The notes beneath the pieces are model-generated. The model was not told the DNA's origin, ran no database searches, and was given only the letters and a program-made list of their open reading frames with translations. Shown here piece by piece: positions 708 through 54,285 of a stretch of 57,763 nucleotides of DNA. Location of the stretch: contig JBPOHW010000014.1 of assembly GCA_052035095.1 (NCBI GenBank), positions 1-57,763 on the forward strand. The letters run 5' to 3'. The DNA comes from Candidatus Moraniibacteriota bacterium. GTDB lineage: Bacteria > Patescibacteriota > Minisyncoccia > Moranbacterales > UBA1568. Position numbers and translations under genes: made by a program. Each line of letters begins with the position of its first letter. The stretch's first letter is position 1.

Positions 708-1841
<1,134 letters not shown>

Positions 1842-1874
1842 CTATCCTACCAATCAAAGAACAGTCAAGAAATC

Positions 1875-3788
1875 TTATTTCCCTTTCACTTTGTAGCCGC
1901 TTGAGGGAATGGAGGTGTCCTCGCGCAGGTTCGTCGTCTTTTCGCGCGTCTCCGATCGAATGAGCGATTGCGTGAACACATCCGTCGCTTTCGCCGTCGA
2001 AACACCGAGGAGGGGTACCTCCATATCCACCTGATTCACTTCGGGTCGAATTGAAACCTGAAACGACACGCTTCGTTTCGGCGAGAGAAATCCCTCGCCA
2101 ACTCCCATACTCCCGACACTCCACACGATTTTGTTTGTTCGTTCGTTGTAGGCAAGCGTTTCCGAATCCGGAAAGGTCTTCCCGGTCCAGCGCGCGCCGG
2201 TCGGAAGATCCGCGGACACCTCCACCCCCGTCACGTCATTCGTCGTATTGGCAAGTTGCCAGCGAAGAGTATAGGTCGTCTCCTCTCCCACGGTAGGAGG
2301 GATCGGTCCCGTATTCGGAATATCTCCGTTTTGATAGCTCCCGAGGGTTTCAAGCAAGAGCCGCGAATTTACCTTGACCCACATCGTGTTCGTCGCGACA
2401 ATCTTGTTCGCGCCGGCGGGATTCGGCACGTCGGGACTCTCGATTTTTGCCGTCGTTTTCACGCGAAAGTTCTTTGCAATGGCGCTCTCCGGCACGAAAT
2501 CATCCCCGCGAACCGGCACGGAAAACTCCACCTTTCCCGAAGCGTTTGGCGCGAGATTGGCAAACTGCCCCACGTCCGACGCCTTCCATACAATACGTTT
2601 CCGAGCGCTATCGTAAGCACCCTTTTCCGGTCGAAGTCTTGAAAAATCAAGCGCGTCGCCTTCAAGCTCCACCGTCAAAATCACCTCTCGAAGCGCGGTC
2701 GGGCTATCATTTCGATACTGTATCTCATACCGAAGCGTATCGCCAGGATCAACGGCGGCGGGCGCCGCGCCATTTACCACCTGCCGAATACCAAACGGAG
2801 GGGCAACCACCCGTGTCGTCCGCTCAACATCGCTATAGGAAAGAAAGGTGTTGTCGCCCTGGAAGGTTCCGAGCTCGACCCGGAAAAGTTTCGTTTCATT
2901 GGGAATGCCATCCAAGATTCCCGTTATCCGAACTTTTCCCTTCTCTCCCGCGGAAAGCGTACCGAGATACCATACGGCGTCCCCTTCCGACGGTCTCGGG
3001 TCTCCTTCAATCAGCGAAAATCCCGAGGGGTAGCTCGCCTTGAGGCGCACGTTCGAGAGTGTCGCGTCGCTTGTGTTTTCATAATTCACGAGATAGGTCG
3101 CTTCTCCTTGCGGAGAAGTTGTGAGGGGCGCCTCCATCTCAACCGCGAGAGAGGCGGTCCGAAGGTTGACGCTCTTGTGACCCTTCGCCGAAAAACGGCT
3201 CTCGAGATTTCTCGGTTGATATCGAAGTTCGGCTCCAATATAGGCGAGGGTGTTTTTGGATCCGAAAAATTTTCCGGAAAACTCGAAGCTCCCTTCGCCA
3301 AAAGCGGGAACATCTCCGATTGCTACGACACTTGACGAAACATTGTCCTGAAAGGTTGCCTCATTCGCCTCCGGACGAAATCCCGAAGGATATGACACGA
3401 CCAGTTCCGCGTTCGAGAGGCCTGAACGATTCGCATTTCGATAGGAAATGATGAACGTCGTCAGATCGGATCCGCCGACATTGCTCGGTCCCGATACGGT
3501 AACCGTCACGCGATTTTCGGAAAAAAGCGATTGCTGAATACGGACGAATGTCCCAACTAAGAGCGCGAAAAAGGCTATCGCTCCGATTGCGATTGCCCCC
3601 TTTCGAAGTTCCTTCTTGTACCGCGTGAAGAAACGCGTCCGCGCGTCATGCCAATCGCTCGTCTCGGTCAATCGAATCTCGGCGCCCGCCGGCGCCCGAC
3701 CGGGATTGAACTCGCTCGACCCATGCGTCGCAAGAGGCTCCGTCTCATCGTGCTTGTGTAATTTTTCATCAAGTTCAGAAAGACTCAT
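1875..3788 (-). CDS. Single-pass membrane protein with repeated DUF11/Ig-like domains
   Basis: N-terminal TM helix followed by repeated 'T-Y-x-I-x-Y-x-N' beta-sandwich units. Start reassigned to the ATG at 3788. Confidence 0.8.
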   Translation of the reverse strand: MSLSELDEKLHKHDETEPLATHGSSEFNPGRAPAGAEIRLTETSDWHDARTRFFTRYKKELRKGAIAIGAIAFFALLVGTFVRIQQSLFSENRVTVTVSGPSNVGGSDLTTFIISYRNANRSGLSNAELVVSYPSGFRPEANEATFQDNVSSSVVAIGDVPAFGEGSFEFSGKFFGSKNTLAYIGAELRYQPRNLESRFSAKGHKSVNLRTASLAVEMEAPLTTSPQGEATYLVNYENTSDATLSNVRLKASYPSGFSLIEGDPRPSEGDAVWYLGTLSAGEKGKVRITGILDGIPNETKLFRVELGTFQGDNTFLSYSDVERTTRVVAPPFGIRQVVNGAAPAAVDPGDTLRYEIQYRNDSPTALREVILTVELEGDALDFSRLRPEKGAYDSARKRIVWKASDVGQFANLAPNASGKVEFSVPVRGDDFVPESAIAKNFRVKTTAKIESPDVPNPAGANKIVATNTMWVKVNSRLLLETLGSYQNGDIPNTGPIPPTVGEETTYTLRWQLANTTNDVTGVEVSADLPTGARWTGKTFPDSETLAYNERTNKIVWSVGSMGVGEGFLSPKRSVSFQVSIRPEVNQVDMEVPLLGVSTAKATDVFTQSLIRSETREKTTNLREDTSIPSSGYKVKGK

Positions 3789-4023: not shown

Positions 4024-4060
4024 GTAATACCAAATTACGCTGAAGACTTCTATCATGTGC

Positions 4061-4144
4061 GCCGAGACTGCAAAAAATAATTTTTCGAAAGTTTGCTCCG
4101 ATAGAGAGGAGCATGTGAGAAAAAATATTTCTTGCAGTCGAGGC
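4061..4144 (+). repeat. ~85-nt structured repeat family B, copy 1
   Basis: GCCGAGAC...GTCGAGGC termini with three internal hairpins. Homologous copies at 7982, 9192, 36717, 38839 and 53411. Confidence 0.9.
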
Positions 4145-4258
4145 AACTCACGCGGTAGCAGAGATGAGAATAAGCTGGTACAACAGGACGTTTTACAGTA
4201 GCAAAAAAAGAAACCTCCGTCAAGAGGAAGTCTCTTTTTCTGTCAGAAAAAAATAACA

Positions 4259-4943: not shown

Positions 4944-5087
4944 TAGGACTTTCTCGCTTTGATGCAGTTTGAGGAAAAACCGAGTACCGAAATGAGGTGT
5001 ATACCATAATACTCCGAATGAGGAACGGAGGTTTTGACGAAGACCAGCCTACCGGCAGGCAGGAATGCGCAAAGTGAGGAAGTCCTA
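4944..5087 (+). repeat. ~130-nt structured repeat family A, copy 1 (carries a 20-bp palindrome insertion at 5044-5063)
   Basis: 18-bp terminal stem TAGGAC...GTCCTA and conserved core TTTGAGGA...GACGAAGA-AATGCG. Confidence 0.85.
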
Positions 5088-5420
5088 GATTTTTTCCAAA
5101 ATAGCCCTCGTTTTTCCCGCCTCTTCCTTGAAAAACATATAGGCGTCCAGCGCCTCATCGGTCGAAACGATATCCTTTTCTTTTCCCAAGAGCTTCTTTG
5201 ATTCCTCCCCTTCCAAGTCCGTGAGAACGCCGATGCTGGCAATTCCCCACTGATTCGTCGAAACAAACAAAATACTCGAAACACCGCACGATGGACACGA
5301 CACATGCATCGTCGAGTGAATATCGTCTTCGATGAGCGGCGTCACCACGGCGGGCGCGTATTTCTTATTGCACACCGGGCACTTCGCGAGCGATTTCAAA
5401 TTTCCAAGAGGGAGACTCAT
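5085..5420 (-). CDS. Conserved hypothetical protein with C4 zinc ribbon
   Basis: CPVC...CPSC pairs. Start set at MSLPLGN. Confidence 0.75.
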   Translation of the reverse strand: MSLPLGNLKSLAKCPVCNKKYAPAVVTPLIEDDIHSTMHVSCPSCGVSSILFVSTNQWGIASIGVLTDLEGEESKKLLGKEKDIVSTDEALDAYMFFKEEAGKTRAILEKI

Positions 5421-5574
5421 AGGGGAAGTATAGAGGAAAAGAACCGCAAAATCAAAGCCTCCTCGCTCAAACGAGCGTAGCACAGAAAACGAGAAAAGGT
5501 CAAGGAACGCCCTCCTTATAAGAGGAAACCGGCATCATTGCGACACCGGCTTAAAATGATAATATTCCCACACA

Positions 5575-5787
5575 TCAGCGACCATTTCTCCTTATCGCAC
5601 ATATCCAGGAGAACAGCATAGAAAAGGGATTTTCCCCTCCGGAAAACACTATGACAATATTTTCCAACAAGACACCTTGTCCAACTATTCCCTTCACACG
5701 TGCAATACCCAACTCATCATCAAGTGGAGTAAGGATATGCTCCCCTCCCGGCACCAAAAAACGCTCTCCTAAAGTCACCTTAGACAT
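5575..5787 (-). CDS. Small hypothetical protein
   Basis: 70-aa ORF with a GGAG RBS before the ATG. No recognised motif. Confidence 0.4.
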   Translation of the reverse strand: MSKVTLGERFLVPGGEHILTPLDDELGIARVKGIVGQGVLLENIVIVFSGGENPFSMLFSWICAIRRNGR

Positions 5788-5866
5788 TTTAGCTCTCCTG
5801 TGAAAAGCGCACGGTCGCGCTGAAACCAGAATACACCGAATAAAACCCTTGTCAATATCGAAAAGA

Positions 5867-7945
<2,079 letters not shown>

Positions 7946-7981
7946 CTAAAAAAAGTTACCTTGAAATCTTTTATCTTACTC

Positions 7982-8065
7982 GCCGAGACCAAGAAAAATT
8001 ATTTTTCTCGAGCTTGCTCCGATAGAGAGAAGCATGTGAGAAAAATAATTTTTCTTGGTCGAGGC
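7982..8065 (+). repeat. Repeat family B, copy 2
   Basis: GCCGAGACCAAG...CTTGGTCGAGGC with the same internal hairpins. Confidence 0.9.
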
Positions 8066-8114
8066 AGCTTCTCGGGAAACGAGAGTGTAAACAATAGCTA
8101 TACAATTCCGAACG

Positions 8115-9149: not shown

Positions 9150-9191
9150 AACGCCTTATATCAAATTACACTAAGAGCTTCTCTAATACAC

Positions 9192-9228
9192 GCCGAGACT
9201 GCAGAAAATAATTTTTTGCAGTCGAGGC
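9192..9228 (+). repeat. Repeat family B, short copy 3 (outer stem only)
   Basis: Sequence GCCGAGACTGCAGAAAATAATTTTTTGCAGTCGAGGC. Confidence 0.85.
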
Positions 9229-9265
9229 AACCCGCAAGAGAGCAGAAGTGAGAATACATTTGGTA

Positions 9266-9475
9266 CTACTGAATAACGTACGGCACGAGCGCCATATACC
9301 GCGCGCGCTTGATAGCGACGGAGAGGTGTCGCTGTTCCATTGTCGTCAATCGGAACTTTTTCGGCGGATAGATTTTCCCCTGCGAGTTGAGAAATCGTCG
9401 AAGGAAATAGGCATCCTTGTAGTCCAGCGCCTCCAATTTCTTCCGCATCGCCTGTTCTTGTTCACTTGTTTGCAT
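9266..9475 (-). CDS. rpsR: 30S ribosomal protein S18
   Basis: Motifs LDYKD..FL.RF....GKI and QR....AIKRARYMALVPY. Follows rpsF-ssb. Confidence 0.95.
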   Translation of the reverse strand: MQTSEQEQAMRKKLEALDYKDAYFLRRFLNSQGKIYPPKKFRLTTMEQRHLSVAIKRARYMALVPYVIQ

Positions 9476-9517
9476 ATCGGTCAATGTTCAATGGTTAACT
9501 GTCAAATAGTAACTCTG

Positions 9518-10034: not shown

Positions 10035-10163
10035 TAGGACTTACGCGTTTGAGTGCAGTTCGAGGAAAATGCGAGGAACGGAGTAAGCTGTATGCGCCAT
10101 ACAGTGTCCCCGCCGAAGCGGGGGAGCATTTGACGAAGAAATGCGCCAAACGCGTAAGTCCTA
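10035..10163 (+). repeat. Repeat family A, copy 2
   Basis: Perfect 17-bp terminal stem TAGGACTTACGCGTTTG/CAAACGCGTAAGTCCTA plus the conserved core. Confidence 0.9.
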
Positions 10164-10189
10164 CGATTGATTTTTATATTTTTGCCGGA

Positions 10190-12539: not shown

Positions 12540-12669
12540 GAGGACTCGTGATTTTGAGTGCAGTTTGAGGAAGATACGAGGAGCAGAGTAAGCTGTATGT
12601 AAACATACAGCGTCCCCGCCGAGGCGGGGGAGTATCTGACGAAGAAATGCGCCAAAATCACGAGTCCTA
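12540..12669 (+). repeat. Repeat family A, copy 3
   Basis: Perfect 16-bp stem AGGACTCGTGATTTTG/CAAAATCACGAGTCCT. It overlaps the pilB stop codon. Confidence 0.9.
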
Positions 12670-14379
12670 CTCTCGCGCGACGCGGATCACTTCATCCACC
12701 GTCGTTACACCCTGTCGGACTTTCTCAAGACCGTCTTCAATCATCGTGCGCATCCCGTTCTTTTTTGCTATCGCCTGAATTTCACTCGCCGTCGCCCGTT
12801 CCATAATAGCATGACGCACCGCCTCATCTATCGAGAGCACTTCAAAAATCCCGACTCGACCCGCGTACCCGCTTCCGTGACAGAGGGGACACCCCTTTCC
12901 GCGATACACGCGCACGGTTTCCTTTTTCGAAGCGATTGCTCGAGGAAACATATTTCGCACCAATTCCTCGCTCAATTCTTTTTGAAGAAACTCCAAAGAC
13001 ACCTCCTCGCTCACGCGACACGGCTCATGAATTTTTCGCACGAGTCGTTGCGCGACAATCACCGATACGGTCGAGGCGATGAGAAATGGCTCGACGCCGA
13101 GGTCAAAGAGTCGTGGCACCGTCGTCGCGGCATCATTCGCGTGAAGCGTCGAGAGAACGAGGTGTCCCGTCATAGCAAGATTGATCGCGATACCGGATGT
13201 TTCTTCGTCGCGAATTTCACCTACCAGAATAATATTCGGATCCTGCCGCAAGATACTCCGGAGTCCCGTCGCAAAAGTAAGGTTGGCGCGCTGATTCACC
13301 TGAATCTGATTGATGCCCGGCATATCATACTCGACCGGATCCTCGATGGTCATAATGTTCACATTCGGCTTGTTCAAAATTCTCAAAATGGCATAGAGCG
13401 TCGTTGTTTTCCCGCTTCCCGTGGGGCCGGTCGAGAGAATCATACCGTAGGGCTTGCGGTACGCCTCCGTTACTCTCGCGAGATCCTGAGATACAAGCCC
13501 GAGGGTACCGAGTGAGAAATGGCGCACGTGCTCGGCAAGAAGGCGGAGTACGATCTTTTCTCCGTCCGTCGTCGGAACAACGGATAAACGAACGTCAATC
13601 GGTGTTTCACTTCCCTCAATCGGCACTCTTATTTTTCCATCTTGCGGCACTTGATGTTCATCCGTTCGAAGGCGCGACAAAACTTTGAGCCTCGAAACCA
13701 CTTGCTCATGAATGCGGCTCGAAAACGAAAGCACATCATAGAGAATACCATCAATACGGAAGCGAACCGTCGCTGATTTCTCGCGCGGCTCAATATGAAT
13801 ATCGGACGCCTTGTTCTGGTACGCGTAGAGGAAAAGCGTGTCCACGATGCGAACAATCGGGAGATCGAGCGCGTCACCGCCTTCGCGCACCCGACGCTCG
13901 GCGGTTTGCACGTGCTCCGCCATAATTTCGTCAAATGTCTTTCCGATATCCTTCGTATAGAGACTGAGTCCGATATCGATATCGGATGCTGTTGCGAGAA
14001 ATACCCGAAGCGGCATACCGGTTTTCTTGACCAGAAAGTCGCATACTTGAATATTGGTAGGATCCTCCATAGCAACCGCGAGACCCCGCTCATCACAAGT
14101 GATAGCAATCACTCGTTGAGCGCGCGCCACCACAAACGGGATCATTCGAAGCACGTGATCCGGAATGGCGATATCCGAAACGCGAACAACGGACACGCCG
14201 AGAAGATCCCCTGCGATTTCAGCCGCTTCCCGCTCACCAATACACCCTTCGGATATCAACGTCGGAAGAAGTGTTGCTCCAGTTCTTTTAGCAGTCGCGC
14301 GCGCCGAAAGAATCGCCTCGTCCGGAACGAGACGCATATCCGAAAGAAGACGAAGAAGAGCGGCTTCGTCAAGTATCAT
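12667..14379 (-). CDS. pilB: Type IV pilus assembly ATPase (PilB/GspE)
   Basis: Motifs ASDIHIEP, Walker A GPTGSGKT, TIEDPVEY, LRQDPNIILVGEIRD, TGHLVLSTLH and CPLC zinc site. Confidence 0.95.
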   Translation of the reverse strand: MILDEAALLRLLSDMRLVPDEAILSARATAKRTGATLLPTLISEGCIGEREAAEIAGDLLGVSVVRVSDIAIPDHVLRMIPFVVARAQRVIAITCDERGLAVAMEDPTNIQVCDFLVKKTGMPLRVFLATASDIDIGLSLYTKDIGKTFDEIMAEHVQTAERRVREGGDALDLPIVRIVDTLFLYAYQNKASDIHIEPREKSATVRFRIDGILYDVLSFSSRIHEQVVSRLKVLSRLRTDEHQVPQDGKIRVPIEGSETPIDVRLSVVPTTDGEKIVLRLLAEHVRHFSLGTLGLVSQDLARVTEAYRKPYGMILSTGPTGSGKTTTLYAILRILNKPNVNIMTIEDPVEYDMPGINQIQVNQRANLTFATGLRSILRQDPNIILVGEIRDEETSGIAINLAMTGHLVLSTLHANDAATTVPRLFDLGVEPFLIASTVSVIVAQRLVRKIHEPCRVSEEVSLEFLQKELSEELVRNMFPRAIASKKETVRVYRGKGCPLCHGSGYAGRVGIFEVLSIDEAVRHAIMERATASEIQAIAKKNGMRTMIEDGLEKVRQGVTTVDEVIRVARE

Positions 14380-31185: not shown

Positions 31186-31308
31186 CACGGCTTTCGTATT
31201 TGAGTACATTTCGAGGCGCAAACGAGAAGCGGAGTAAACTGTATGTAAACATACAGCGTCGAGCATCGGAGGTTGCAACGAAGAAATGTGCCAAATACGG
31301 AAGCCGTG
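31186..31308 (+). repeat. Repeat family A, copy 4
   Basis: 17-bp stem CACGGCTTTCGTATTTG/CAAATACGGAAGCCGTG with one U.G pair, plus the conserved core. It abuts the atpB stop. Confidence 0.85.
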
Positions 31309-36666: not shown

Positions 36667-36716
36667 AGTATAAATTCGTTGTTATACCAAATTATCCTGA
36701 AGCCATGCCCCTGCAC

Positions 36717-36802
36717 GCCGAGACCGCAAAAAAGAATTTTTCGAAACTTCGCTCCGAGCCCGGGAGGAGTGTGTGAGAAAAAATCTTTTTCTTGGTCGAG
36801 GC
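36717..36802 (+). repeat. Repeat family B, copy 4
   Basis: Near-identical to 38839-38924. Confidence 0.9.
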
Positions 36803-36835
36803 GACTTTCAAAAGAGCAGTGGCTAAAACATAGCA

Positions 36836-38317
36836 TTACTTCTTCCCGATCACTATCGTCACGTCCGCTTCGGATGCTTCCAAAGTTTCGACGCGTCGAT
36901 CAAGCGAAGCCTCGAGACCAGAAACGGAGATGAGCTCATCCACAAAAGCGTCCGGCACCGACGCTTTCGCTCGAACCGACGGCGCGATTTCTTTTGACTC
37001 GGCGTTTCCGACGCGTATCACGACAAACTCCTCTTTCGTCAGGATCTCTTGCAATCGCCCCGCCGCCCCCGCGACGCCACTTGCGTTTTCGATGGCGATG
37101 CGAAAACTCGCTCGATTGAAAGCAACCGGCTCTTCGGATGGCGCCGGAACCGTTTCAACCGCTTTCTCCGGAATCGAATTGACAGGAGACACATCCGGCG
37201 GGACACTCGTTTCCAACTGACGCGCGCGATCCGAAGTCTCTTTTTCCCTCTCTTGCCCTTTCTTCAGCAATCCTATGGCGGCAACGCCGCAGGTCAACAC
37301 CACGAGAAACGAAGCAGCCAACGTCCACGTTTTTCGTGAAACCCGATGAGTACCTCCAACCTTTCCCGTAACATCTCCAGACCGATCCGAAGCCGGTCGT
37401 TCATCAAGTGTATGCGGACGAAACCGATCCTCAGCCGCTTCCATTTCTTCCGACGCGGTTACAGCATCATCCGACGCGACCGTCGAAATTTCCGGAACGT
37501 CGAGCTTGATTGAGAGCACCGAACGATCGTCCCCGGAAATATCGCGCTTCTCCGCGCACCCGAGCAGAGCTGTTTTCTTGGAAAACTCCAGTGAAAGTCC
37601 GACTGACTCCGCCTTCTCCCGTTCAAAATCGGAAAGCTCCCGTTCCGAAAAATCGCCAACAAACACGATTGTTTTTATCGACAAGGCAAATCGATGTTCA
37701 ACAAAACGCCGCACATTCTCCACCGCCTCGAAATTTACCACTCCTAAGGATGTCACACTCGAAAGCACTATGCCGCCGATCACTCCAGCGACAAAAATCC
37801 CATCGCTTTTGCAGACGACAAGGATTGCCTCTTTCCGATCGGCAAACAAAGAAGCGATCGCGCACGATTCGGGAAGCGCCTCGAGGACGCGAAATCCGGC
37901 AGATTTCACCGCCGGCACGACAATTCGCGCGAACGAAGCGATGACCGCCACCACCTCGACCGGTCGCCCCAAAGAAGCCGCCGGCAAGGAGACTTCCCGA
38001 TAGTCCCAGGTGGTTTTTTCCAGTTCTTCGGGAACAAGTTTGCCGGCAAGCTGAAAGACCGCTTCGCGTTCCTTTTCCAAGGAAGCGAATACTTCCTTTT
38101 CTTGTTCCGACACAAAAAGCGTCGCCACATACGCGAAGGGCTCCCCCATCAAGAGTCGCACGCTTCGCCCCATCGCCGATCGCGCCGTCTCCAAAACGCG
38201 CCCGATTGTCTCCGGCGTCCACGAGAGACTCACCAATTCCTTCGCTTCATCCCCGTGAACCGAAAATCCTTTCACGGCGCTCGACGTTATGAAAAGCACC
38301 TCCTTGGTATTCAACAT
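36836..38317 (-). CDS. Membrane protein with C-terminal LytR_C domain and PilM/GspL-like N-terminus
   Basis: C-terminal IENASGVAGAAG...VGNA...DVTIVIG and one TM helix. The N-terminal assignment is tentative. Confidence 0.75.
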   Translation of the reverse strand: MLNTKEVLFITSSAVKGFSVHGDEAKELVSLSWTPETIGRVLETARSAMGRSVRLLMGEPFAYVATLFVSEQEKEVFASLEKEREAVFQLAGKLVPEELEKTTWDYREVSLPAASLGRPVEVVAVIASFARIVVPAVKSAGFRVLEALPESCAIASLFADRKEAILVVCKSDGIFVAGVIGGIVLSSVTSLGVVNFEAVENVRRFVEHRFALSIKTIVFVGDFSERELSDFEREKAESVGLSLEFSKKTALLGCAEKRDISGDDRSVLSIKLDVPEISTVASDDAVTASEEMEAAEDRFRPHTLDERPASDRSGDVTGKVGGTHRVSRKTWTLAASFLVVLTCGVAAIGLLKKGQEREKETSDRARQLETSVPPDVSPVNSIPEKAVETVPAPSEEPVAFNRASFRIAIENASGVAGAAGRLQEILTKEEFVVIRVGNAESKEIAPSVRAKASVPDAFVDELISVSGLEASLDRRVETLEASEADVTIVIGKK

Positions 38318-38800: not shown

Positions 38801-38838
38801 AGGTTAACTACATTACTCTGAAGACCACTATCATGCAC

Positions 38839-38924
38839 GCCGAGACTAAGAAAAAGAATTTTTCGAAACTTCGCTCCGAGCCCGGGAGGAGCGTGTGAGA
38901 AAAAATCTTTTTCTTGGTCAAGGC
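38839..38924 (+). repeat. Repeat family B, copy 5
   Basis: Near-identical to 36717-36802. Confidence 0.9.
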
Positions 38925-38962
38925 AACTCCCAAGGAAGCAGGGACGAAAATAAGGAAACAAT

Positions 38963-39499
38963 TTAGAGTGAGTTCGATCGGATTTCCGCCGATGATCGAA
39001 GAGCGGTATCACTCGCGTATTCGAAACGATTGCTCCCCGATATTGTTTCGAGCTGGAGTTCAAAGCCGATATTTTTTGTTTTGTTATCAAGAGAAGAGGC
39101 ATTGGTGAAGAGAATCGAACTCACGACAACAGTGGAGGACGTGAGCGCGACCGGCGCCGAAACGCCTTGTGCCACGCGGAGCGTGCCACTCGACACGTCG
39201 ATAACAATCGGATCATTGGGCGCGACACCGCGAAGCGTCACCCTTGATCCGGGAGTCGCCGCGAGGTTCACGCCAAAATTGGAATTGGCGACATCGATAT
39301 CCGTCGCCTCGCGGATAAAGAATGAGAGCCTCTCTCCCGCAAATCGAATATTCGATACCGCGTCGTGATGTGTGTTTCCCTTCACGCCGATCCCGATCAT
39401 ATTCCATCCAAATCCCGCCAAGGACACCAACACCATCCCGGCAATACCGACATAGAGCAACACTTCAATCAAAGTAAACGCTTTTGCCTTGTATTTCAT
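38963..39499 (-). CDS. PilW-like minor pilin
   Basis: KA-FTLIEVLLYVG prepilin motif. Confidence 0.88.
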   Translation of the reverse strand: MKYKAKAFTLIEVLLYVGIAGMVLVSLAGFGWNMIGIGVKGNTHHDAVSNIRFAGERLSFFIREATDIDVANSNFGVNLAATPGSRVTLRGVAPNDPIVIDVSSGTLRVAQGVSAPVALTSSTVVVSSILFTNASSLDNKTKNIGFELQLETISGSNRFEYASDTALRSSAEIRSNSL

Positions 39500-51010: not shown

Positions 51011-51405
51011 GGGGTTGTCTAGATTCGACAGGATGCACTTTGAAAATACGCAAGCCGATTATGAGGGTGATATCGCAAATCTTTCCCTCGCGATGATACC
51101 TGCAAACTTCATCACAAAGGCAAAGCAAGCCTTCGCTTCGGCGTTCCAGCCTGCTTTCGCTTCCGCTCTCGCCTAATTTAGGCAAGCGCCATCGGACTCC
51201 CGACTCCCGATAGGGAATGTTCCGGTGTCATACTCTCGGGAAGGCGCGTTTCTTTCGCCCTCTGAAGAAACGATCGCTCTTGCACAGAGGACATGTTGAA
51301 CCGTTTTCGTGCGCTTTTATCGATCAACGTACTCCAAGCACACTACGCTTGTAGAATATTTTCGGAAATCATCACTGGACATGGGTGCAATTCCCATCAA
51401 CTCCA
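51011..51405 (+). ncRNA. ssrA: tmRNA
   Basis: GGGGUUG/CAACUCC-A acceptor stem with G3.U70, GAUUCGAC D-loop region, T-arm, and an internal tag ORF at 51102-51176. Lies next to smpB. Confidence 0.95.
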
Positions 51406-51413
51406 CAGAGCAG

Positions 51414-53364: not shown

Positions 53365-53410
53365 AGAAAAATATTCTACCAAACCTACTCAAAAATTTCC
53401 TATTATGCAC

Positions 53411-53501
53411 GCCGAGACCGAGAATCCCGCCCTGGCGGGACGAAACTTCGCTCCGAGCCCGGGAGGGGTGTGTGAGAAAAAATCTTTTTCTTGGTCGAGG
53501 C
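53411..53501 (+). repeat. Repeat family B, copy 6 (first internal hairpin replaced)
   Basis: Same termini and 3' two-thirds as copies 4 and 5. Confidence 0.88.
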
Positions 53502-53538
53502 AACTCTCAAAATGGGAGAGATTTAAGCCAATTTTACA

Positions 53539-54285
53539 TTATTCCGTAATCAAGGGGAGCGTGTGATAACAGCGCGGATCGATTTCGTAGATCACGTCTT
53601 TTTTCTCAACCACAATGCGCCAACCTTTTCCTTCCGCCGCTTTTTTCAAATTCTCATTCGGATTGAATGCGATCGGATGCTCGACCAATTCCAGAAACTT
53701 CACATCCGACTCGGTATCGCCGATGCCGTAGGAATTTTCAAACGTGAGGTGATACTCTTCAAAAAGCTTCCGTGCCGCCTCACCCTTGTCGCGACTCGGC
53801 TCATAGGACGCGATCCCCGTATATCGCCCATCCTCCCCCACCTCATATATACTGCCAATAACCTTGTCAAAGTGGAGATAATCGCGATTGTACGCCTCAA
53901 CAATCTCGACCGGCGATCCGGAAATGGCAAAAAGAAGATATCCTTCGTCTCGAAGCTTCCGCATCAGATGCTCCGCGAAAATATAGGTCTGGCGCACGCG
54001 AAACGGGATGACGCTCTCGCTCGCTCGCCGCACGTCTTCCGGCGTGCACCCGCGGATGAATCGGGAATATAGATCAATGAGCGCGAGACGATAATCCTCG
54101 TACGTCCCGGTATGCGTCAACCACTTCGAATAAATATCCACCAAGGTCTTCCTGACATGGGGAGGGAAAATACGGAGCCATGAAAGCTCATTTATGAGTT
54201 CAAAATGAAGGTTCTTCCGAAATATCGTCCCGTCGATATCAAAAATAGCCGCCTTGGTTTTTTGGAGTGTTTCCATAGAGTTCAA
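53539..54285 (-). CDS. HAD-IB (SerB-like) phosphatase
   Basis: Motifs FDIDGT, ISGSP, K...A and GDTESD..FL..V.HP.A.NP. Confidence 0.92.
   Translation of the reverse strand: MNSMETLQKTKAAIFDIDGTIFRKNLHFELINELSWLRIFPPHVRKTLVDIYSKWLTHTGTYEDYRLALIDLYSRFIRGCTPEDVRRASESVIPFRVRQTYIFAEHLMRKLRDEGYLLFAISGSPVEIVEAYNRDYLHFDKVIGSIYEVGEDGRYTGIASYEPSRDKGEAARKLFEEYHLTFENSYGIGDTESDVKFLELVEHPIAFNPNENLKKAAEGKGWRIVVEKKDVIYEIDPRCYHTLPLITE

Follow-up and report, generated by a model that had tools for sequence, protein, structure and literature searches.

Six copies of a repeat in the window

The DNA studied here, called the window below, is a stretch of 57,763 nucleotides (the whole of contig JBPOHW010000014.1, assembly GCA_052035095.1) from a Candidatus Moraniibacteriota bacterium. 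It is gene-dense, with about 51% G+C and a GC skew that is negative throughout, and nearly all of its genes lie on the minus strand. The first-pass annotation had described six "cloverleaf" copies of a repeat, all on the plus strand. A search of the window with the pattern CGCCGAGAC...GTCRAGGC matches exactly these six, all on the plus strand (4060-4144, 7981-8065, 9191-9228, 36716-36802, 38838-38924 and 53410-53501), at a chance expectation of none. As argued below, they are very probably copies of a non-autonomous DNA transposon (MITE). Their full extents and neighbours are as follows.

4028..4180, plus strand: MITE copy of 153 bp with left terminal repeat TACCAAATTACGCT; core 4061-4144; flanking triplets TAA 4025-4027 and CAA 4181-4183; between the terminator of rplY (L25) and a DUF11 gene.
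7942..8100, plus strand: old MITE copy of about 159 bp; terminal repeats decayed, core intact (7982-8065); left end 2 nt from the gyrB start codon (CAT 7937-7939).
9159..9265, plus strand: short MITE copy of 107 bp; core 9192-9228, without the apical hairpin and one A/T arm; flanking triplets TTA 9156-9158 and CTA 9266-9268, the latter being the TAG stop codon of a small minus-strand gene (9266-9484); efp start 6 nt past the left triplet.
36685..36835, plus strand: MITE copy with decayed right end; core 36717-36802; flanking triplets TTA 36682-36684 and TTA 36836-36838, the latter being the TAA stop codon of a gene with a LytR_C domain; start of a pilin-like gene 15 nt to the left.
38806..38962, plus strand: MITE copy with decayed terminal repeats; core 38839-38924; the sole GA/AA copy; right triplet TTA 38963-38965, the stop codon of a pilin-like gene.
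53377..53538, plus strand: MITE copy; core 53411-53501; G+C hairpin TCCCGCCCTGGCGGGA in place of the first A/T arm; right triplet TTA 53539-53541, the stop codon of a HAD-hydrolase gene.

The same DNA holds further features. An unrelated repeat, called Family A in the first-pass annotation, has four same-strand copies (4957-5018, 10048-10164, 12553-12670 and 31199-31303), one of which ends 345 nt from a strain-variable segment, positions 5505-5849, replaced by 491 other letters in run X8. A contig of run X5 joins the right end of a MITE copy (4180) to position 5089 via 7 other letters (TTATCTT); this junction is more likely another locus where both repeat families abut than a strain without rplY and the Family A copy. 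Positions 51011-51408 match the full-length tmRNA of Rfam (98 bits), but ARAGORN calls neither a tmRNA nor a tRNA in all of the window's 57.8 kb.

How widely does the MITE occur? A profile search over the window and related DNA gave about 45 copies on about 30 contigs, which come from wastewater or sludge and represent three or four genomes of Moranbacteria. The scan of species-representative genomes found 16 true loci in two MAGs, Candidatus Moraniibacteriota XM1_ASGE3bin.7 (JAYRSG01) and CAZJZN01, the latter labelled Bdellovibrionales and carrying the same MITE family. The JGI metagenome scan added 12 true loci, every one from sample Ga0268298; 8 of the 20 metagenome matches and one genome match (Rhizobium, L006) were discarded as chance matches of the pattern, and the viral contigs scanned held no true copies. 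In five wastewater or sludge metagenomes the contig depth over the MITE is 12-17 times that of its flanks, and contigs break at the element. It should be noticed that all the sequences are short-read metagenome assemblies and that the interiors of repeats in them may be chimeric, for example in the orthologues L010/L023, L012/L036 and L016/L024, which differ by a whole module.

Ends, target duplication and an empty site

What kind of element do the six copies represent? The 85-nt stretch that had been proposed as the repeat unit is only the inner near-palindrome of a whole element of about 152 bp: conservation extends about 33 nt further to the left and about 36 nt to the right, up to true terminal inverted repeats bordered by a 3-bp duplication. 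These repeats, TACCAAATTACCCT...AGGGTAAGTTGGTA, are 14 bp long and become visible once at least 23 copies are aligned; in well-kept copies they agree at 13 of 14 positions. The ends are of the TACCAAATTAC type, and a copy is thus bounded by TACC...GGTA. The conserved asymmetric termini GCCGAGAC/GTCGAGGC, earlier judged to be unlike the terminal repeats of MITEs, are therefore not the ends. The lengths range from 152 to 161 bp, with short forms of 106-107 bp and one copy of 190 bp. There is no coding capacity, and the length variants are not multiples of three; they differ by whole modules, namely the short form, the G+C hairpin in place of an A/T arm, and the apical loops. The short copy of the window has a counterpart at L027:545-653, with the flanking triplets TCA/TCA.

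Directly outside each end stands a triplet T-N-A, in which N can be A, T, C or G, and which constitutes a 3-bp target-site duplication. The two triplets are identical (TTA, TAA, TCA or TGA) in 12 of the 24 copies that could be anchored, and most of the others are one base off. They are direct repeats, inverted in none of the 24. A 2-bp TA duplication was ruled out, since the pairs TCA/TCA and TGA/TGA cannot be parsed in that way.

Looking for unoccupied sites in relatives, as had been proposed along with the cloverleaf description, gave one clean case. The site is empty in L033:10191-10270 (Ga0268298) and filled in L001:2902-3057 (CAZJZN01), with flanks that are 97-99% identical and junctions that read gaagTAAcatt (empty) and gaagTAA[152 bp]TAAcatt (filled). 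At greater length, the empty allele is ...gggaagTAAcattctg..., within ...tttttgggaagTAAcattctgtcc..., and the filled allele is ...tttttgggaagTAA[ TACCAACG...152 bp...ATTTGGTA ]TAAcattctgtcc..., or in short gggaagTAA[TACC..152 bp..GGTA]TAAcattctg. This precise pair of sites, filled and empty, with its 3-bp duplication, identifies the insertion as that of a MITE. Taken as a whole, the six repeats are best explained as copies of a non-autonomous DNA transposon of about 152 bp, with a probability of about 0.88; the family consists of real repeats and is a bona fide MITE of ordinary kind.

For the copies in the window, no empty site was found in contigs of eight DNA metagenomes, whose strains are 97-100% identical; there the copies are kept or the contigs break inside them. 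L014 was considered as an empty site against window 1640-1960 and rejected, since synteny breaks there. The window copies are old: decay has reached their ends, no sampled strain is without them, and a genome that is only 73% identical shares one of them. Integron attC sites were rejected as an identity for the repeats, and tRNA-like punctuation, IS605 ends, TnpB guide RNAs and intrinsic terminators were dropped likewise, on account of the terminal repeats with their duplication, the irregular spacing, the lack of a U-tract and the lack of any tRNA or Rfam match.

Which enzyme could move the element? Bacterial insertion sequences of the IS1031 type produce TNA duplications, and the ends of the IS5 family are typically GG/GA. 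The end of the Moranbacteria MITE starts with TACC and no transposase gene with MITE ends was found, so that membership in the IS5 family is putative. Judged by the 3-bp duplication, a DDE transposase of the IS5 or PIF/Harbinger kind would move the MITE in trans; the enzyme itself was not found. Duplications of 3 bp with the sequence TWA/TNA are the mark of PIF/Harbinger-IS5 relatives (PMC4482050), and together with short terminal repeats they are what the element has in common with Tourist-like MITEs of the PIF/Harbinger and IS5 (IS1031/ISL2-type) groups (PMC4482050). Neither some 250 kb of related DNA nor the scans of the collections yielded an autonomous element with these ends, and terminal repeats standing alone or far apart were absent from the window, 28 related loci and the viral contigs. 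The parent insertion sequence is missing for several accepted MITE families too. The first-pass annotation had itself named plain MITEs, derived from an insertion sequence with exactly these ends, as the result that would overturn its reading; MITEs they are, but no such parent was found. A literature search found no description of MITEs in Patescibacteria.

The core, its fold and its strand asymmetry

The 15 stem pairs of the core are standard on the plus strand in 98.4% of cells. Both sides of a pair are changed in 61 cells, compared with 15.6 in shuffled alignments; none of 500 shuffles reaches the observed value, and the signal is lost when the partner is shifted by 1-3 columns. The covariation that had been claimed for the stem is thus borne out, and the pairing in the MITE core is actively kept. 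A 4-bp box beside GAC/GTC occurs in at least nine Watson-Crick versions (TGCA, CAAG, CGTA, CACA, CGAG, CGAA, CGCG, CACG and TTGT, each with its complement). The inverted repeats of a DNA element can covary without any RNA function.

Is the fold a cloverleaf? Most copies have their two A/T arms paired to one another in a rod of about 26 bp, with covariation between the central triplets of the arms (TAA/TTA, TTA/TAA, GAA/TTC, TGA/TCA). In about eight copies a G+C hairpin stands instead of one A/T arm, and only there is a branched, cloverleaf-like fold the sole option. The cloverleaf is therefore an allowed alternative and not, as had been proposed, the general fold of the core. The apical hairpin has 7 bp, (C/T)GCTCC...GGAG(TG/CA), in which one pair covaries (C-G in 19 copies, U-A in 17), and its loop always has GA at both ends. 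On the plus strand the core contains an invariant block, GAGGAG-(C/T)-(A/G)TG-TGA-G (window 4104-4120, for example). Its translation, from a Shine-Dalgarno-like run through a start to a stop, is unlikely because the spacing is 1 nt.

The tandem GA/GA mismatch had been called invariant. This nearly holds in the window, with five GA/GA copies and one GA/AA, but not overall: among 38 aligned copies the site is GA/GA in 30, GA/TC in 5, AA/TT in 2 and GA/AA in 1, so that Watson-Crick pairs stand there in 7 of the 38. The mismatch characterises a subfamily. Where the rod ends on its inner side, another site has the same exchange of GA for TC between subfamilies, and this exchange places both G.A positions in a helix, where the tandem G.A is tolerated and frequent and not required.

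The two strands do not fold equally well. The first-pass annotation had noted that the G.U pairs favour the plus strand, and the alignment agrees with it: there are 32 G.U cells against 4 A.C cells, and the same pairs, read on the minus strand, are standard in 93.5%. The plus fold is the more stable one in 37 of 39 cores, with energies for the plus and minus strands of -43.5 vs -37.9 kcal/mol under RNA parameters and -24.5 vs -22.6 kcal/mol under DNA parameters. When the arms are compared copy by copy, the wobble pairs add up to about 15-18 on the plus strand vs 6 on the minus in a hand tally that leaves out the G+C-hairpin arms, and 23 vs 19 in the raw script totals over all copies. The 37 of 39 do not stand for that many independent events, because the asymmetry is largely inherited from a few master copies. 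A mutation bias was considered as the source of the G.U excess and rejected, since the G-rich strand is the one expected to gain C-to-T changes, which would tilt the asymmetry the other way.

A transposon that is purely selfish and active should keep its ends best. Here the majority fraction is 0.98 and 0.93 at the two sides of the stem foot and 0.99 at TGTGAG, and it is lowest in the terminal repeats (0.78 and 0.66). Between the window and the copies of other genomes, identity is 75% in the core and 58% in the arms. Selection in place may have kept the core better than the ends, and so may segment exchange between copies. The exchange of segments is favoured by the G+C hairpin modules, which recur among copies of one genome, and by orthologous copies that differ by whole modules, a pattern that chimeric short-read assembly could mimic.

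Is the element transcribed as a known RNA, or does it carry a signal for transcription? No Rfam family, tRNA, sigma-70 promoter or terminator consensus matches the MITE. The conserved left flank was considered as a Bacteroidetes -7 box or extended -10 and rejected: this flank is nothing other than the terminal repeat, and neither a promoter nor a terminator emerges from the consensus scan of the elements. Two metatranscriptomes hold transcripts of this organism at 100% identity, in shallow, unstranded contigs, none of which runs over a MITE copy.

Orientation, neighbouring genes and what they suggest

Is there any rule in the orientation of the copies? The C-rich strand of the contig carries 35 of 37 non-redundant copies (95%); counted per contig, the ratio is 23 to 1, with one mixed. 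We infer that the C-rich strand is the lagging strand. The skew follows the chromosome strand rather than the coding strand, as 30 of 32 well-scored genes on the C-rich strand keep the skew sign of their contig; the G-rich strand carries only 79% of the genes. At five loci the nearby coding DNA has mostly the same sense as the MITE, and the MITE is still on the C-rich strand, while one or two loci run contrary to that pattern. The first-pass annotation had placed the copies antisense to every flanking gene, which is correct throughout the window but fails twice in relatives, at the independent loci L010 (=L023) and L012 (=L036). The replication strand is therefore at least as good a guide to orientation as gene direction is, and fragmentary contigs blur the two. 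In L010:1-7038 the C-rich, presumably lagging, strand carries seven well-scored genes in a row, which is unusual where about 80% of genes are co-oriented with replication.

Such an orientation bias is unusual for cut-and-paste MITEs. The better-folding strand, on the inferred lagging strand, corresponds to the leading-strand template, and the weaker fold falls on the strands that are exposed in single-stranded form, which are the mRNA of most neighbours, the lagging-strand template and the non-template strand. A weak fold on exposed strands is as compatible with a tolerance filter or with fork-coupled insertion as with a function of the plus strand. The polarity would come most readily from fork-coupled insertion or from loss of copies in the opposite orientation; function of the fold is a less likely cause.

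Where do the copies land? In 8 of 24 copies, four of the six in the window among them, the triplet that is duplicated serves as the stop of an adjacent gene, and the next gene often starts 2-20 nt past the other end of the MITE. Four of the six window copies start at the stop codon of the gene upstream and reach to within 2-15 nt of the next start codon. The MITE would thus seem to insert at TNA sites within the very short spaces between the genes of these compact genomes, and often at the stop codon itself. An insertion there is harmless because the duplication restores the stop, and the landing on the stop codon accounts for the fixed distance of about 36 nt from core to upstream stop. The site beside gyrB is also occupied in XM1_ASGE3bin.7 (L015:127-283), and since the DNA there is about 73% identical, this copy must be old. 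The short copy at efp is absent from that genome, in which efp has a canonical GGAGGT ribosome-binding site (L015:1336-1360); none is recognisable in the window (9150-9160), where the MITE ends 6 nt from the ATG. Copies also lie between convergent genes, after terminators and in a tRNA gene cluster. The last of these stands between tRNA-His and tRNA-Arg (L024:12290-12447 / L016:6720-6884) and, having the same sense as the tRNAs, would belong to their precursor transcript. In the same pair of contigs, which are 97% identical, L016:6556-6660 differs from L024:12473-12547 by a 105-nt insert in the anticodon region of tRNA-Arg(tcg), a gene that is uninterrupted in L024. Inverted repeats, CCCGCCTGCC/GGCGGGCAGGG, flank the insert, which holds a full tRNA-Arg(tcg) of its own; this is the gene that ARAGORN calls.

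There is a further question, whether the MITE does anything for its host. The first-pass annotation had suggested a folded RNA or single-stranded DNA recognised by a protein. Part of this may still hold, as the core covaries, folds better on the plus strand, outlasts the ends and has a polar orientation, but the elements are MITEs. One could suppose that the MITE carries a strand-specific functional module, the plus strand of which a protein recognises as single-stranded DNA at the fork or as antisense RNA. We consider this unlikely, although several results point its way: the nine or more versions of the box, the G.U excess with the more stable plus fold, the interchange of G.A/G.A with G-A/T-C at two helix sites, the conservation of the core in old copies with decayed ends, and the polarity of 35 in 37 copies with a skew that follows the chromosome strand and not gene direction. 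Against it, the MITE contains no promoter, terminator or Rfam match, the cells of the asymmetry are non-independent, and the Watson-Crick variants have multiplied too, so that G.A/G.A is not required. Moreover, the well-folding strand is the leading-strand template, the one least exposed as single-stranded DNA, template switching allows a palindrome to correct one arm from the other, and copies can exchange segments. Recognition by a protein is a costlier explanation than correction templated by the palindrome, exchange between copies or selection against one orientation. In a more specific form the MITE would be the vehicle of a strand-specific module, made of the 26-bp stem, the tandem sheared G.A and the hairpin closed by GA...GA, which is read single-stranded in a fixed fork polarity and selected after the ends have decayed; this we regard as doubtful.

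Equally doubtful is that the copies have been exapted as cis elements of host mRNAs, be it as an intercistronic hairpin that bridges stop and start, as a substrate of RNase III, or as an outward extended -10 (TTGGTA|TNA). The positions of the four window copies between stop and start speak for it, as do the gyrB copy, 2 nt from the start and shared by two genomes that are 27% apart, and the GGAGG site of efp in the relative without the MITE. Correia elements do all three of these things (PMC10969869). However, a simple promoter scan finds nothing inside the MITE copies, the spacing to the start codons varies from 2 to 20 nt, other copies lie in the convergent, post-terminator and tRNA-cluster positions given above, and the mRNA would carry the worse-folding strand.

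The Correia elements of Neisseria (CREE/NEMIS) are the closest analogue of the Moranbacteria MITE. They are about 100-155 bp long, have terminal inverted repeats and a short A/T-rich duplication, occur in dozens of copies that are mostly intergenic and near gene starts, and have no known parent insertion sequence; in transcripts the whole element forms a long hairpin, and its ends resemble outward -10 boxes (PMC10969869). The Moranbacteria MITE differs in that it duplicates a 3-bp TNA instead of TA, is unrelated in sequence, lives in a CPR host, and has a branched apical module, tandem G.A pairs and a core that is better kept than the ends. To our knowledge, no comparable replication-strand polarity is known for Correia elements.

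A hairpin of the REP/REPIN kind or derived from IS200/IS605 (PATE), moved as single-stranded DNA by a tyrosine HUH transposase, would directly explain the replication-linked orientation and has in its favour the strong polarity relative to GC skew and a conserved foot with a variable box, yet it is very improbable, since it is contradicted by the terminal inverted repeats and the 3-bp duplication with its varying base, and no RAYT or TnpA gene was noticed in an unsystematic look at the proteins of the sampled loci. The likeness to REPINs with RAYT and to IS200/IS605 PATEs lies in intergenic hairpin repeats with compensatory stem changes and a bias of strand or orientation; those elements are without terminal inverted repeats or target duplication, and the Moranbacteria MITE has both.

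With the copies taken as a MITE, the finding bears on how the genomes of these bacteria are built. Genomes of CPR/Patescibacteria are about 1 Mb in size and tightly packed, yet in the window alone one MITE is present six times and a second repeat family four times. The MITE copies sit on stop codons and 2-15 nt from the starts of essential genes such as gyrB and efp. The 3-bp TNA duplication lets the element occupy a stop codon without harm, and such elements can become the entire intergenic region of an operon. In genome annotation these "cloverleaves" belong among the masked repeats and not among the RNA genes. Neither the 95% strand polarity nor a core that outlasts the transposon ends is expected of a plain cut-and-paste MITE. 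If the MITE is after all the vehicle of a strand-specific module, it would exemplify, in CPR bacteria, a class of hairpin elements that are oriented by replication and recognised by proteins; the alternative is a transposon with terminal repeats and target duplication whose insertion is coupled to the fork. If the polarity and the durable hairpin hold in complete genomes, they could reveal fork-coupled transposition or a use of the hairpin by the host.
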